From contig JACPDL010000003.1 of assembly GCA_016184005.1 (NCBI GenBank), positions 380,974-444,973 of the forward strand: 64,000 nt of DNA, read 5' to 3'. Source of the DNA: Candidatus Aenigmatarchaeota archaeon. Its GTDB lineage: Archaea; Aenigmatarchaeota; Aenigmatarchaeia; GW2011-AR5. Numbering within the stretch: position 1 is the stretch's first letter; the number at the start of each line of letters is the position of its first letter. Positions 5,050 through 55,484 of the stretch are shown piece after piece. The position numbers and the translations under genes are program-made. A model generated the notes under the pieces. It was not told the DNA's origin and made no database searches. It worked only from the letters and a program-made list of their open reading frames with translations.

Positions 5050-6264
5050 TTACCCCAGTTTCATGATCTTTCTCAGTGCGCCCAGAAAAATTTCGCATTC
5101 TTCCTGCGTGTTGTAGAAATAGAGCGAAGCGCGCACAGACCCGCCGATCCCGTGCGCGTTGAACCAGGAATGGACGCAATGCATTCCGGAACGCACCTCT
5201 ATGTTTCCGAGCTCGTCAAGCATAAGGGCGATGTCATGGTGGTTCATCTTCTCCGAAAAAAATGATATTATGCCCCCCCGAAGCTCCGGGTTTTCCGGGC
5301 CTATCACGCTCAGCCCCGGCATTTCCTGCAGCCCTTCTGTGATTGCCTTGTTCAGGCTGGTTTCGTGCTTCTCCACGCTTTCAAGGGGGATTCCTTCCAG
5401 ATAATTTACAGCTGCGGCAAGGCCTATCGCGCCGGCATAGTTCTGCAGACCCGCCTCGAACATTTCTGGAGGAGCTTCAAGCTCATATGTTTCATAGGTC
5501 GAGTTCACCACGGTTTCGCCGCCTAGCATGAATGGCTGGAGTTTCTCCAGTGCGTCTTCCCTTGCATACAACACGCCGGTTCCGGTGGGGCCCAGCATCT
5601 TGTGTCCGCTGAATGAAATAAAGTCGGCTCCAAGATCCCTGACGCTGATCCTTCTATGCGGCGCCGACTGTGCGCAGTCAAGCATGACGGCAATTTCATG
5701 CTCATGGGCAATCTTTGCTATCTCCCTTGCAGGTATTGTATAGCCGTCAAGGTTTGATGTGTGTACCATTGAAACAAGCCTGATATTCCTGTTGGTTCCG
5801 ACAGTCTGCGAGAAAGCTTCCAGATCAAATGTATTGTCCTGACTGGAACGCAGTACAAGGTGCTTCAGCCCTTTCCTGTTTTTCAATAAAAGCCACGGCA
5901 AAAGATTGGAGTTGTGCTCTTTGTCTGTTGTAAGCACAGCGTCGTCCTTCCCGAACAGAAACGAGTTCGCAACAAGGTTTATTCCTTCCGTGGTGTTCTT
6001 TGTGAATATGACCTCTTCCGGCCTCGCCCCTATGAATTCCGCAACAGTTTCCCTTGATTTATGGTACTCTTCTGTTGCCTTTGCCCCAAGCCTGTGGCTG
6101 CTTCTGCCGGCGCACGCTGGATACTCATAATAATACTGGTCCATCGACTCGATCACCTGCTTCGGACGCAGGGTCATGCACGCATTGTCGAAGTACACTA
6201 TCGGCTTGCCATTTATTGTTTTTTGCAGTATCGGGAAGTCGTCTCTCAGTTTTTCCATGTTCAT
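5050..6264 (-). CDS. sufS: Cysteine desulfurase (class V aminotransferase, SufS/NifS-like).
   Basis: 404 aa. The PLP-lysine motif SFSGHKMLGPTGTGVLY is present, with class-V aminotransferase architecture and a C-terminal SufS-like region (RSGMHCVHSW). Confidence 0.8.
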   Translation of the reverse strand: MNMEKLRDDFPILQKTINGKPIVYFDNACMTLRPKQVIESMDQYYYEYPACAGRSSHRLGAKATEEYHKSRETVAEFIGARPEEVIFTKNTTEGINLVANSFLFGKDDAVLTTDKEHNSNLLPWLLLKNRKGLKHLVLRSSQDNTFDLEAFSQTVGTNRNIRLVSMVHTSNLDGYTIPAREIAKIAHEHEIAVMLDCAQSAPHRRISVRDLGADFISFSGHKMLGPTGTGVLYAREDALEKLQPFMLGGETVVNSTYETYELEAPPEMFEAGLQNYAGAIGLAAAVNYLEGIPLESVEKHETSLNKAITEGLQEMPGLSVIGPENPELRGGIISFFSEKMNHHDIALMLDELGNIEVRSGMHCVHSWFNAHGIGGSVRASLYFYNTQEECEIFLGALRKIMKLG

Positions 6265-36769: not shown

Positions 36770-37112
36770 AAGGAGAAAACCTAGGTTTCCTGCAGAGAAC
36801 CTAAGTTCTCTGAGGTCTCAACTCGAGGAAAGCAAAGCTTTCCTGAGTCTTCAGAAACCTTTGGTTTCTGCAAGAAGAGCGAAGCTCTTTGCAGATCTCC
36901 TTTCTAATCCTCATTCCTAATCAAGAATATTATTTTTCTCGCTCAGAAAACAAAGTTTTCTGGCGTCTCAAAGAGCATGGCTCTTTGCAGATTTCCCAAG
37001 GATTTTCTTTTCTCTAAAGGAAGAGGGGTTATCTGCAGAAAGCAAAGCTTTCTGAGATGTCAGAATTGCTTTGCAATTCTGCACATAGGGGAGAAAACGC
37101 AGTTTCTCCCTA
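36770..37112. repeat. Tandem array of about ten different perfect hairpins (6-9-bp AG-rich stems, 3-6-nt loops) filling the aspS-downstream spacer.
   Basis: The hairpins read directly are AAACCTAGGTTT, CAGAGAAC-CTAA-GTTCTCTG, AGGAAAGC-AAA-GCTTTCCT, CAGAAACC-TTT-GGTTTCTG, AAGAGC-GAA-GCTCTT, CAGAAAAC-AAA-GTTTTCTG, CAAAGAGC-ATG-GCTCTTTG, CAGAAAGC-AAA-GCTTTCTG, CAGAATTGC-TTT-GCAATTCTG and GGGAGAAA-ACGCAG-TTTCTCCC. Confidence 0.7.
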
Positions 37113-46170: not shown

Positions 46171-46327
46171 TGTCAAGGACCACCGTCTGAAGACGGTGGC
46201 TTGCTGAAATTTCTGAATCCTTGAGCACATGGTAAACCAAAGGTTTACCTGTGTCGCAAAGCCCAAAGCTTTGCAACAATTCGCATTCCCTGAACCACTG
46301 CTTAAAAACAATGGAATGCGAAGTATA
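46171..46327 (+). repeat. About 105-bp two-hairpin repeat element (copy 1) with a nested 51-bp two-hairpin insertion at 46228-46278, immediately upstream of the lysK start.
   Basis: The sequence TGTCAAGGACCACCGTCTGAAGACGGTGGC...CGCATTCCCTGAACCACTG-CTTAAAAACA-ATGGAATGCGAAGT matches copies at 53432-53539 and 55118-55225. The insert CATGGTAAACC-AAA-GGTTTACC...GCAAAGC-CCAA-AGCTTTGC is flanked by a CA duplication. Confidence 0.65.
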
Positions 46328-49303: not shown

Positions 49304-49426
49304 TGGACTTTTCTATAACACTAAAACATTTAAGCGCAAAACTGGTTCAATCTTCTCAACGCGTTCAGCTTGTCGCTGTCGCCTGTTTTTGCTTCACTAA
49401 TCACAGAACGAAGTTCAAATCTGCTA

Positions 49427-49637
49427 TGCGAGGGGTCGGATTTGAACCGACGAACGGACTAACCGACAAGGTTTCTTACAAAGCGTATGACACACTTTGT
49501 GTGTCTGTCGGCTTCTCTGAGCTACGCCTTAGTCCTAAGCTTCGCCTTAGTTAATCTTGCGCCTTTTTCTGTAATCCTTTCCGTTAACGCTTTTCGCGTG
49601 AGCCGGAAAGGGTTAGACCATGCTTGGCTACCCTCGC
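49427..49637 (-). tRNA. tRNA with a long variable arm, probably Leu (anticodon UAG). It carries a 61-nt canonical anticodon intron (about 49473-49533) and at least one further intron in the D-arm region.
   Basis: The acceptor stem is GCGAGGG/CCCTCGC with discriminator A. The T arm is GTCGG-TTCAAAT-CCGAC. The D loop AAGCATGGTCTAA is Leu/Ser-like. The anticodon loop is CTTAGGA. The canonical 37/38 intron has a perfect central helix CTTA/TAAG. A Leu-type variable arm TCGGTTAGTCCGTTC is present. How the D arm joins the anticodon stem could not be resolved; the intervening 'CTAAGGCG' is tandemly duplicated. Confidence 0.6.
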
Positions 49638-52639: not shown

Positions 52640-52888
52640 ATGACTGAGAAAGAAGTGCAATTGACAACGGCATCTGCAAGGGGTCAGGTTGTTATACCCC
52701 AAGAGATCAGAGAAGAACTAGGCATAGGATCAGGTACGAAATTCGCTGTCTATGGTAAGGGCGATACAATTATTTTCAAGCGCGTGGAAGTGCCGACAGC
52801 AAAGGATTTTGAGAAACTTGCTTCATTTGGACGCAAATTCGCAAAAAAGAAAGGCATAAGGGAAAAAGACGTGCTCGAAGATGACTAG
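52640..52888 (+). CDS. AbrB/SpoVT-family antitoxin (VapB/MazE-like).
   Basis: 82 aa. The swapped-hairpin motif is QVVIPQEIREELGIGSGTKFAVYGKGDTIIFKRVE. It overlaps the downstream PIN gene by 8 bp. Confidence 0.6.
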   Translation: MTEKEVQLTTASARGQVVIPQEIREELGIGSGTKFAVYGKGDTIIFKRVEVPTAKDFEKLASFGRKFAKKKGIREKDVLEDD

Positions 52889-53285
52889 AGTAGTAGCCGA
52901 TACCAATATCATTATTTCTGCAATTTTCTGGAATGGCAAGCCCTACAGGGTTATATCCAAGGGCATGCAAGGAGAATATCAGCTCGTGACGTCTCCGGAA
53001 ATCATAGATGAAGTCCTGACCAAATTACGCAATAAATTCCAGTTTCCGGAAGACAAAATTGAGGAGCAGGCAAACATATTGATGTCTTTGTTCCACATGA
53101 TTATACCAACCACGAAAATAGACGTAGTGCGTGACAAAAGCGATAACAAGATAATCGAATGCGCCATTGATGGCAAAGCTGATTTCATAGTTACAGGAGA
53201 TCCGGACCTTCTGAACCTGAAAGAGTACAATGGAATAAGAATTGTTACAGCTAATGAGCTCTTGCACGACTATAAAGTTCGTTAG
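52881..53285 (+). CDS. vapC: PIN-domain toxin (VapC family).
   Basis: 134 aa. It has the VVADTNIIISA N-terminus and later acidic residues (TGDPDL). Confidence 0.7.
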   Translation: MTRVVADTNIIISAIFWNGKPYRVISKGMQGEYQLVTSPEIIDEVLTKLRNKFQFPEDKIEEQANILMSLFHMIIPTTKIDVVRDKSDNKIIECAIDGKADFIVTGDPDLLNLKEYNGIRIVTANELLHDYKVR

Positions 53286-53431
53286 CCATCTCAAACTATA
53301 ATACTATGGTTTTGAATCATAATGGATCGTCTTTAGCAGTTTATCTTTTGCATCATTTGGCAAAGTAGCTATTTCGCCGCTACTCTTATTTTCTCTTCTA
53401 TGAAATGTTACTTGGAAGTTTTTCAAGAATA

Positions 53432-53539
53432 TGTCAAGGACCACCGTCTAAAGACGGTGGCATGCTGAAATTTATGAATCCTTGAGCAATTCGCATTCCC
53501 TGAACCACTGTTTAAAAACAGTGGAATGCGAAGTTTCAA
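53432..53539 (+). repeat. About 105-bp two-hairpin repeat element (copy 2), intergenic.
   Basis: Identical to copy 3 over about 100 nt. Hairpins are CCACCGTCT-AA-AGACGGTGG and CGCATTCC[ctgaa]CCACTG-tttaaaaa-CAGTGGAATGCG. Flanked by TCAA on both sides. Confidence 0.65.
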
Positions 53540-53873: not shown

Positions 53874-54113
53874 TGCTCTCGGCGGGATTGCTGCAAAGAG
53901 CGAAGCTGTTTGAGCCCTCGATGAGCTACGCTCAACTCGAAGAAGCCCAAAGGCCTTCTTGAGTTTACAGAAAGTTTCACTTTCTGATAAATCGAAGGTG
54001 AACCCAGGGGTTCAAATCTTATGCTCTCGGCGGGATTGCTTCAGAAACCAAAGGTTTCTGAGCTCTCGGCGAGCTGCGCTCAGCCGCAGATGAACCCAGG
54101 GGTTCAAATCTTA
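53874..54113 (-). repeat. Tandem partial duplications of the tRNA-Glu 3' end, interspersed with mini-hairpins.
   Basis: The 17-nt tRNA 3' terminus (reverse complement AATCCCGCCGAGAGCAT) recurs at 53874-53890 and 54022-54038, in addition to the real tRNA at 54113-54129. A 40-nt unit (tgaacccaggggttcaaatcttatgctctcggcgggatt) occurs twice. Between the copies lie diverged 45-nt repeats and the hairpins AGAAACC-AAA-GGTTTCT, CAGAAAG-TTTCA-CTTTCTG and GAAGCCC-AAA-GGCCTTC. Confidence 0.6.
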
Positions 54114-54237
54114 TGCTCTCGGCGGGATTTGAACCCGCGTCCGCGGCGATCTCCAGTTTTTCCCCGAGGGCTTTTGCGCCTCAGCGGAAAAGGGCTCTGA
54201 GAGGCCACTATCCTTGACCGGGCTAGACTACGAGAGC
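54114..54237 (-). tRNA. tRNA-Glu (anticodon CUC) with a 49-nt canonical 37/38 intron (54149-54197).
   Basis: The acceptor stem is GCTCTCG/CGAGAGC with discriminator A. The D arm is GTCT-AGCCCGGTCAA-GGAT. The anticodon stem is GTGGC/GCCGC and the loop is CUCUCA|C. The T arm is GCGGG-TTCAAAT-CCCGC. The intron's BHB central helix is CTCT/GGAG with bulges CA|G and AT|C. Confidence 0.75.
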
Positions 54238-55058: not shown

Positions 55059-55484
55059 ATGTATAAAATTTACCATTCCCAGAAGTTTGATAAAGAATTA
55101 GATAAATTTGGCAAAGATGTCAAGGACCACCGTCTAAAGACGGTGGCATGCTGAAATTTATGAATCCTTGAGCAATTCGCATTCCCTGAACCACTGTTTA
55201 AAAACAGTGGAATGCGAAGTTTCAAAGAGCGAGTCAATAAAATTGAAGATCAGCTAGTAAAGAATCCTAATGTTGGATCTCCTTTAGGAATTTCATGGTT
55301 AAGAGAAAAGAGATATGGTAAATATAGAATTTATTACATTATTTATGAAGACTTGAAATCTGTTTTTATGGTAGCTATTAGTGAGAAAAAAGATCAGCAG
55401 AAAGTTATCAATACAGTTAAAATTCTTTTAGAATACTTCAAAGAAGAAATAAAAGAATTAGTGGATAAGAATAAAATTACTTAA
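55059..55484 (+). pseudogene. RelE/ParE-family toxin gene split in frame by a 102-bp insertion of the 105-bp repeat element (55122-55223).
   Basis: The N-terminal piece MYKIYHSQKFDKELDKFGKDV (55059-55121) and the ORF 55212-55484 (..KERVNKIEDQLVKNPNVGSPLGISWLREKRYGKYRIYYIIYEDLKSVFMVAISEKKD) share one frame and together form a canonical RelE/ParE sequence. The insert carries an in-frame TGA. The flanks are TCAA/TCAA. No BHB fit is found at this junction. Confidence 0.55.
55118..55225 (+). repeat. About 105-bp two-hairpin repeat element (copy 3), inserted into the relE-like gene.
   Basis: Same sequence as copy 2. Confidence 0.65.

Follow-up and report, generated by a model that had tools for sequence, protein, structure and literature searches.

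Here we describe a conserved module that lies behind tRNA genes in archaea and was found in a 64,000-nt stretch of DNA from a Candidatus Aenigmatarchaeota archaeon (assembly GCA_016184005.1, contig JACPDL010000003.1, positions 380,974 to 444,973; hereafter the window). In the window, the tRNA-Glu(CUC) gene is followed on its own strand by two intervals, and each of them closes with the 3'-terminal bases of that tRNA. These intervals are two units of one conserved module and not debris. We tentatively read each of them, with a probability of about 0.45, as a miniature, non-autonomous integrative element that targets the T-loop and 3' end of tRNA genes, is stacked in tandem at tRNA-Glu and would be served by a recombinase in trans. 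The evidence consists of the anatomy of the units, their family behind other tRNAs, fold prediction and covariation, further tandem arrays, polymorphism among relatives, and one member that carries an integrase.

The tRNA-Glu gene itself appears to be functional. The Rfam tRNA model RF00005 matches it over its full length (47.1 bits), the anticodon loop being enlarged by about 51 nt, and the minimum free energy (MFE) fold of the gene is a cloverleaf (z = -2.7). The anticodon was read manually as CUC. At the intron, the predicted fold places a 4-bp helix between splice-site bulges, beside the anticodon stem, i.e., the bulge-helix-bulge motif; the Rfam match, the manual reading and this helix all agree with a first-pass annotation of the window, which had called a tRNA-Glu with a CUC anticodon and a 49-nt intron. 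No such motif was seen at the unit borders when the sequence was read by eye. ARAGORN, run on the whole 64-kb window, called no tRNA, tRNA-Glu included. The intron varies between sister species in sequence as well as in length (49 nt in the window versus about 66 nt in the sister species, as compared with L003 1833-1973 and L068), and the exons differ between the window and L003 or L068 at few bases.

The last 16 nt of tRNA-Glu, positions 58-73 (AATCCCGCCGAGAGCA, hereafter the core), are present in three exact copies, start-to-start spacings being 92 and 148 nt, and match nowhere else in the window, even when up to three mismatches are allowed. Three exact 16-mers, with the tRNA left intact, are what would be expected of an element integrated at a tRNA gene by a tyrosine integrase. 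The first-pass annotation had reported a 17-nt tRNA end repeated twice more, which corresponds to these 16 nt plus one flanking T. It had also reported a longer exact repeat of the tRNA end and its flank; this repeat exists (54091-54129 equals 53999-54037) and is 39 nt long instead of the 40 nt given. Its diverged 45-nt repeat is present upstream of copies 2 and 3, where it amounts to 62 nt at 81% identity with the core included, and the three mini-hairpins that it placed in the spacers were found as well. Identity between the repeats begins at the fixed boundary 57|58 and ends at the discriminator base, which suggests that the tRNA was rebuilt and that its displaced 3' end was left behind.

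Read on the minus strand, both intervals have the same order: a spacer TAA, the 20-mer GATTTGAACCCCTGGGTTCA, hairpin P3, and hairpin P4, which ends in AGC and is followed directly by the next AATCCCGCCGAGAGCA. The 20-mer occurs in two exact copies in the window and in none of 100 shuffles. It starts with the reverse complement of the T-arm (GGGTTCAAATCC) and ends in GGGTTCA, and thus folds on itself to form a further hairpin, P2. The consensus motif of the module is GATTTGAACCC-NN-GGGTTCA, in which the T-arm is copied in reverse complement and folds back on itself. On the tRNA-sense strand, the anatomy of the element is therefore a short spacer (S), a' (GGATTTGAACCC, which is T-arm positions 51-62 in reverse complement), a loop of 2 nt, GGGTTCA, P3 and P4, and each unit is flanked on both sides by tRNA positions 58-73. 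The unit sequences, when read, contained no terminal inverted repeats.

The two units have homologous P3 and P4 hairpins, of which P4 has diverged between them. In unit 1, P3 shows compensatory changes in three pairs when compared with loci L050 and L039. In unit 2, P3 is expanded, and its apical part (GAGCGTAGCTC) matches L050 and not unit 1, which argues for a separate insertion over a recent local duplication. The mini-hairpins had been proposed to show target-site behavior; two extra mini-hairpins of a type present elsewhere in the window are indeed nested in P3 of unit 2, but they leave the tRNA-end repeats unexplained. Coordinates are collected in Table 1.

Table 1. Features of the tRNA-Glu locus, with positions numbered from the first base of the window
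Feature	Positions	Strand	Basis and remarks
tRNA-Glu(CUC) gene, 124 nt including intron	54114-54237	-	Rfam RF00005, cloverleaf fold
tRNA-Glu intron, 49 nt, canonical 37/38	54149-54197	-	Rfam insertion, fold; coordinates counted from sequence
Core copy 1 (AATCCCGCCGAGAGCA), inside functional tRNA-Glu	54114-54129	-	Exact match
Unit 1, 76 nt: TAA spacer, T-arm-complement motif, P3, P4	54038-54113	-	
Unit 1 motif GATTTGAACCCCTGGGTTCA, forms hairpin P2	54091-54110	-	Exact copy; T-arm reverse complement, then GGGTTCA
Unit 1 hairpin P3: successive helices of 3, 4 and 4 bp separated by bulges, loop of 3 nt	54064-54090	-	Fold
Unit 1 hairpin P4, contains TCAGAAACCTTTGGTTTCTGA	54038-54063	-	Fold, hairpin list
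Core copy 2, exact repeat of tRNA 58-73	54022-54037	-	Exact match
Unit 2, 132 nt: unit 1's spacer and motif, expanded P3, diverged P4	53890-54021	-	
Unit 2 motif GATTTGAACCCCTGGGTTCA (P2)	53999-54018	-	Exact copy
Unit 2 P3: outer stem CCTTCGA/TCGAGGG, apical GAGCGTAGCTC, two nested mini-hairpins	53916-53998	-	MFE fold, hairpin list
Nested mini-hairpins in unit 2 P3	53968-53986, 53940-53960	-	Hairpin list
Unit 2 hairpin P4 (GCTCAAACAGCTTCGCTCTTTGCAGC)	53890-53915	-	Within the 62-nt repeat, 81% identical between units
Core copy 3, exact repeat of tRNA 58-73	53874-53889	-	Exact match; 12 nt upstream of rhodanese start codon (53861)

Hairpins of this kind also occur elsewhere in the window. One at 36851-36870 is identical to P4 of unit 1 in 20 of 20 bases. 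It lies within a nest of CAGAAAnC-NNN-GnTTTCTG mini-hairpins (36780-37100, plus strand) that are arranged in P3/P4-like pairs, with AT(C/T)TCC after each pair, and one pair is preceded by GGATTT...GGGGTTATC. This nest, which has no adjacent tRNA, looks like a decayed array of the module found at tRNA-Glu.

The module recurs behind other tRNAs. A scan for GATTTGAACCCCTGGGTTCA, which covered one genome per species, gave matches in five species genomes, i.e., one Aenigmatarchaeota genome (L003), three Methanosarcinales metagenome-assembled genomes (MAGs), and one Thermoplasmatales MAG (L002). L003 has the gene order of the window, with a methyltransferase, tRNA-Glu, and a rhodanese. In the three Methanosarcinales MAGs, the 20-mer lies just 3' of other tRNAs (Arg, Asp, and one unnamed), and two hairpins separate the motif from a second copy of positions 58-73 of the tRNA concerned. 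A metagenome scan that let the 2-nt loop vary yielded 64 further stretches, about half of which were modules; the remaining motif matches were unrelated, e.g., in coding regions. In the window, genomes and metagenomes together, paired cores flank 38 units, which are spread over 35 loci and represent 24 different tRNA 3'-end 16-mers. The carriers are genomes of Aenigmatarchaeota, Methanosarcinales, and Thermoplasmatales, and unclassified metagenome contigs.

The units of this family share their boundaries and their four-part structure. Paired cores are identical at all 16 positions in 34 of the 38 units, and identity immediately 5' of A58 is at chance (1.3 of 6 bases). Units are 92-293 nt long, L002 excepted. 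The length of the repeat is not fixed: it is mostly 16-18 nt, about 22-23 nt in L014, L027, and L041, and about 98 nt in L002. Other tandem arrays were found in L041, L055, L060, and L063, the last of which has two units identical to each other. Related units also occur at different tRNAs, as in the window, L050, and L039 (about 70-80% identical), and L014 and L053 have an identical 33-nt P4 region. Some copies are truncated or decayed (L003, L039, and L067). L067 had been considered as a copy with cargo after P2, and this was rejected because its translation reads as a SOUL-type gene that follows a truncated module.

Several further observations concern tRNA genes or matches at the margin of this family. 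Motif matches in L017, L024/L028, and L010 have a different repeat extent, including CCTGTTAACCGCACCA with an encoded CCA at its end, a 20-nt repeat from position 62, and a 54-nt repeat; these may be a separate, possibly bacterial, variant. In L005 (6965-7043, minus strand), a Methanosarcinales tRNA-Lys(UUU) has an apparent insertion of about 27 nt in the T-loop, flanked by AGTC, and both the ARAGORN and the Rfam calls of this gene are truncated or odd.

The module does not correspond to a family we could find on record. In Rfam 15, at gathering as well as permissive thresholds, the tRNA alone scores, the best other hit reaching 23 bits against a cut-off of 65.7 bits. Full-text searches of the literature for the 20-mer in DNA and RNA spelling and for keywords, with subscription journals outside their coverage, returned no description of the module. 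It is likewise unmentioned in a review of archaeal tyrosine recombinases, in a paper on tRNA disruption in C. subterraneum, and in a motif-discovery paper.

The units are predicted to fold alike. ViennaRNA gave the same four-way junction, P1-P4, for most of the 34 units folded, in which P1 pairs (N)GGATT with AATCC(N) of the second core and P2 pairs TGAACC with GGTTCA. The 244-nt trailer of tRNA-Glu folds better than its shuffles (z = -5.0). If P1 is stacked on P2, GGATTTGAACCC would pair with GGGTTCA plus AATCC and form a duplex of T-arm positions 51-62. The strand break in such a stack would fall exactly at 57|58, the point from which P3 and P4 would exit.

Covariation supports these stems. 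A family-wide alignment (MAFFT/RNAalifold) recovered only P2 and the base of P3, since hairpin lengths vary, and ungapped alignments of subfamilies were therefore used. In the alignment of the window, L068, L050, and L039, 95.5% of cells are paired versus 27-47% when the partner strand is slid, and four pairs have changed on both sides. In seven copies of a second subfamily (class II), 97.6% of cells are paired, and five pairs are compensated on both sides, a result reached by none of 500 shuffles; over both alignments, the slid-partner control gave 27-60% paired. The structure is thus conserved by compensation, and its strand bias is opposite in the two subfamilies. In class II, the sense strand gives the better fold for all 11 of 11 copies (17 G-U pairs sense versus 3 antisense), and class I copies, the window included, have the opposite bias (8 sense versus 31 antisense).

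The locus is polymorphic among close relatives, as a strain comparison suggested by the first-pass annotation had been expected to reveal. In a sister species, whose flanking genes are 90-95% identical to those of the window at the nucleotide level, eight independent contigs hold one intact unit with two cores, and this single unit differs from unit 1 of the window at one of 92 bases. In L117, 39 nt are deleted between two copies of CGCCGAGAGC, one in P3 and one in the second core, and 90 nt are deleted at the tRNA-Glu locus of L003. Unit 2 was seen only in the window's species. The relatives compared show two-unit, one-unit, and partly deleted forms, and no clean empty site was found among them. 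An assembly artefact at the array is unlikely, because the unit interiors are unique and a single-unit variant would not yield the sequence that links P4 of unit 1, across the core and spacer, to the motif of unit 2; the one-unit form, in addition, is seen in eight independent sister-species assemblies. The two-unit form is known from the source assembly alone; L119, a short contig of the same species, ends within the repeat.

One member of the family carries an integrase. In L002, from the Thermoplasmatales MAG, tRNA-Gly(CCC) is followed by a 4.4-kb cargo and then by a'-P2-P3-P4. Next comes a tRNA-Gly repeat of about 98 nt that extends into the flank; its first base, A57, lies at the T-loop position of the other repeats, shifted by one base to the 5' side of A58. 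The cargo encodes a tyrosine integrase (PF00589, E 6e-13), a DNA methylase, and a BamHI-like endonuclease. L002 is thus a classical integrated element that has the module at the end away from the tRNA, and in the small copies the short spacer stands where L002 has its cargo. The tRNA 3' end also occurs in inverted orientation (GTGCGGGTGCCGGGA) in L002, at 1131-1180 behind tRNA-Gly and at 5590-5640 behind its repeat; paired with the 3' strand of the acceptor and T-stem, this sequence would give a long hairpin. The first-pass annotation had explained the repeats at tRNA-Glu by integrase-mediated insertion and later loss. The att-like geometry, the L002 integrase, and the polymorphism are in line with the insertion, but a later loss is neither supported nor needed, as the intervals are complete copies of a conserved, structured unit of 75-130 nt that recurs behind many tRNAs.

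These data suggest the following mechanism. A site-specific recombinase acting in trans would join a small circular form of the element to the tRNA gene at or just 3' of 57|58; the tyrosine integrase of L002 is the only candidate for this recombinase that was found. The element-borne positions 58-73 would complete the tRNA, and the original 3' end would be displaced beyond the insert. A second insertion would then produce the array of tRNA, unit 1, core, unit 2, and core. The four-way-junction fold may provide the recognition architecture of the element's attachment site.

A number of points weigh against this mechanism. L002 is the only copy of the module that bears cargo, and its integrase is frameshifted and split over two overlapping frames. 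Pfam scans of most long open reading frames (ORFs) in the window revealed no integrase, transposase, or Cas1 domain; PF00589, the domain of the tyrosine integrases that the first-pass annotation proposed to look for, was found in the relative L002 only. A narrow hidden Markov model built from the L002 integrase and two relatives found no similar ORF in other module loci. These two are the only detectable relatives of the L002 integrase, and neither a tRNA nor the module motif is present at their loci. The provirus or plasmid with a matching attachment site that it proposed to look for was not found either: viral contigs (exact and degenerate motif scans) and phage and plasmid records (BLAST) showed no matching attP, the scans of viral contigs gave nothing or coincidences in coding sequence, and the sole attP-like junction lies inside the tandem array. 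The chief difficulty is that the flanking repeats always match the local tRNA, even where S, P3, and P4 are nearly identical at different tRNAs. A classical attP with a fixed core does not predict this pattern, which requires frequent retargeting (e.g., by gene conversion once the element is inserted) or duplication from the target, and which leaves some probability to a staggered-cut transposition or to a functional trailer RNA. Finally, class II copies extend the complementarity to tRNA-specific positions on the 5' side of GGATTT, over up to about 13 bp in L062, and this needs selection or templating.

Host-matched repeats at 24 tRNA ends around a nearly constant insert would follow directly if a T-arm-recognizing transposase or casposase-like integrase nicked one strand at 57|58 and the other at 73|74, with a stagger of about 16 nt, and inserted S-a'-P2-P3-P4, with gap repair duplicating positions 58-73. 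Such a cut-and-fill process would also account for tandem stacking, and casposases are known to take a T-loop-encoding segment as a "leader" and to duplicate the adjacent 14-15 bp (PMC5137440, PMC6977970). We nevertheless regard it as unlikely: the units lack terminal inverted repeats, neither a Cas1 nor a transposase domain appeared in the scanned window ORFs, casposon duplications cover just the last 4-5 bp of the tRNA and not 58-73, repeat length varies from 16 to about 23 nt (about 98 nt in L002), and L002 resembles a classical att duplication with an integrase. Another reading that we consider unlikely makes the module a recombination site or mobile unit of a new kind: a folded DNA or RNA strand with P1 and P2 would mimic the T-arm target, broken at 57|58. 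The module could then move among any tRNA genes that share GGGTTCAAATCC, and both the host-specific repeats and the class II extension of P1 would be templated from the target during insertion. Such a module would be an archaeal, tRNA-directed analogue of attC/CTX-type folded sites or of target-primed insertion, and not an ordinary attP. Quite unlikely, in our view, is a primary role as a structured RNA in the 3' trailer of pre-tRNAs, acting as a processing or stability element or as an antisense-plus-decoy for the T-arm and 3' strand, with spread being secondary. The position of the units between the tRNA and the next flank, on the tRNA strand, the stems kept by compensatory changes, the class II preference for the sense-strand fold and its G-U bias, the covariation of P1 with tRNA-specific bases in class II, and the single change in 92 bases of unit 1 next to flanking genes of 90-95% identity would all fit an RNA function. 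However, the G-U asymmetry is opposite in class I, which includes the window, deletion variants coexist in nearly identical populations and the unit is thus dispensable, truncated or decayed copies occur (L003, L039, and L067), no Rfam family matches, and T-runs are not clearly shifted to a position after the last core.

The literal version of the earlier proposal, in which large elements entered tRNA-Glu and were later deleted, leaving arbitrary remnants and att repeats, is very unlikely. It can draw on the att-like repeats and the integrase-bearing L002, and the integrase is often lost from integrated elements in archaea (PMC8371274). However, about 37 independent small copies with shared boundaries and a four-part structure stand against a single large copy, random deletion would not keep leaving the same 75-150-nt type of unit, the stems are conserved by compensation, and nearly identical small units are found at different tRNAs. 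Highly improbable is retroposition, in which the trailer RNA that 3' processing releases (S to P4 plus core) would serve as template for insertion at a second tRNA gene, with the bottom strand (...GGATT-3') nicked there and priming on AAUCC beside P4. Such a route, which is purely speculative, would account for both borders, on the left at the tRNA 3' end and on the right at A58, as well as for cores that match the host, but no reverse transcriptase was seen, the repeats lack CCA, and some of them pass position 73 (about 98 nt in L002). We give equally little credence to local tandem duplication or slippage of one ancestral unit, or to an artefact of assembly, as the source of the array. Slippage is evidently active at the locus, as the 39-nt loss between the CGCCGAGAGC copies of L117 illustrates, and the identical units of L063 could be a local duplication. 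Beyond the constrained 39 nt, however, units 1 and 2 differ strongly: they are no more than 81% identical over the 62-nt repeat of P4 and core, P3 has been rebuilt, and the apical P3 of unit 2 resembles that of L050. The unique junction sequences would also be hard to reconcile with an artefact.

Among known systems, the closest kind to the miniature element that we favor is a tRNA-targeting integrative element with att repeats, as documented for archaeal elements with tyrosine integrases of the pNOB8 and lambda types (PMC8371274, PMC3293823). Shared features are the rebuilt tRNA, an identity block with a fixed 5' limit in the T-loop, tandem integration and, in L002, an integrase gene that adjoins the rebuilt tRNA. 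The present units differ in being tiny (75-150 nt) and gene-free, in having arms with an inverted T-arm copy that fold into a conserved four-way junction, and in combining the same arms with many tRNA-specific cores, and a free element with a matching attP was not found. Casposons are similar in that a T-loop segment just upstream of the duplication serves as leader, the duplication is about 15 bp, and tandem insertion at the regenerated target is expected (PMC5137440, PMC6977970). Their duplication of 14-15 bp, however, overlaps only the last 4-5 bp of the tRNA gene (PMC5137440, PMC6977970), while the duplication observed here, positions 58-73, is 16 nt wholly inside the gene. Since, in addition, inverted termini are absent from the units and neither a Cas1 nor a PolB domain was detected in the scanned ORFs of the window, identity with casposons was rejected.

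Integron attC sites and the attP of CTX phage are folded single-strand recombination sites. By analogy, the module keeps its structure while its sequence varies and has bulges or mismatches at fixed places in P3 and P4, its fold would recreate a duplex copy of the target (P1 plus P2 as the T-arm segment of the gene), and its units may be likened to cassettes, each bounded by a short repeat. Unlike these systems, it has no integron integrase, attI, or Xer/dif context, and its strand asymmetry conflicts between subfamilies. The units also resemble miniature inverted-repeat transposable elements (MITEs) in being small, gene-free, and multi-copy, in far outnumbering the one autonomous-looking relative, and in containing nested mini-hairpins. 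They differ from MITEs derived from DDE transposons, however, in that they lack terminal inverted repeats, occupy a strict single position, always the same segment of tRNA genes, and have flanking repeats of at least 16 nt (16-23 nt) in place of a short target-site duplication of fixed length.

The surroundings of tRNA-Glu in the window have further features of note. Toxin-antitoxin genes flank the locus at 52640-53285 and 55212-55484 (MazE-like plus PIN, and ParE-like). These stretches do not align to L003 and L068 of the sister species, and the neighborhood therefore looks like a hot spot for small insertions. A 112-nt direct repeat (53428-53539 and 55114-55225, 99% identical, 1686 bp apart) brackets the rhodanese, tRNA-Glu, and methyltransferase genes. 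It holds the hairpins CCACCGTCTAAAGACGGTGG and CCACTGTTTAAAAACAGTGG as well as the first codons (MRSF) of the ParE-like gene, and a related hairpin is located at 46180. The exact rhodanese protein had no database match, probably as a result of a different start-codon call.

A second tRNA-like locus lies elsewhere in the window. At 49427-49637 (minus strand), together with 49413-49422, there is a gene-like stretch of 211 nt that shows tRNA hallmarks and long insertions, i.e., the acceptor GCGAGGG/CCCTCGC, UAGCCAAGC..GGU at the D-arm position, the T-arm GTCGGTTCAAATCCGAC, and a discriminator A. Neither ARAGORN nor Rfam called it. The stretch is 99.5% identical to L003 and inverted relative to the flanking genes. 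Five bases past its 3' end, GATTTGAAC is likely a remnant of the T-arm-complement motif.

The first implication of these findings concerns annotation: standard tRNA or Rfam scans miss the units, and ARAGORN missed the intron-containing tRNA-Glu itself. If our reading is correct, short "orphan" tRNA 3' fragments and contig breaks beside tRNA genes in archaeal MAGs would be explained. The units would also add strongly folded RNA to the trailers of pre-tRNAs, the processing of which could be affected. More generally, tiny, structured, gene-free inserts that copy tRNA 3' ends would be present, previously unnoticed, at many archaeal tRNAs in at least three distant lineages, and would offer a testable system for how integrative elements choose and change their tRNA targets.

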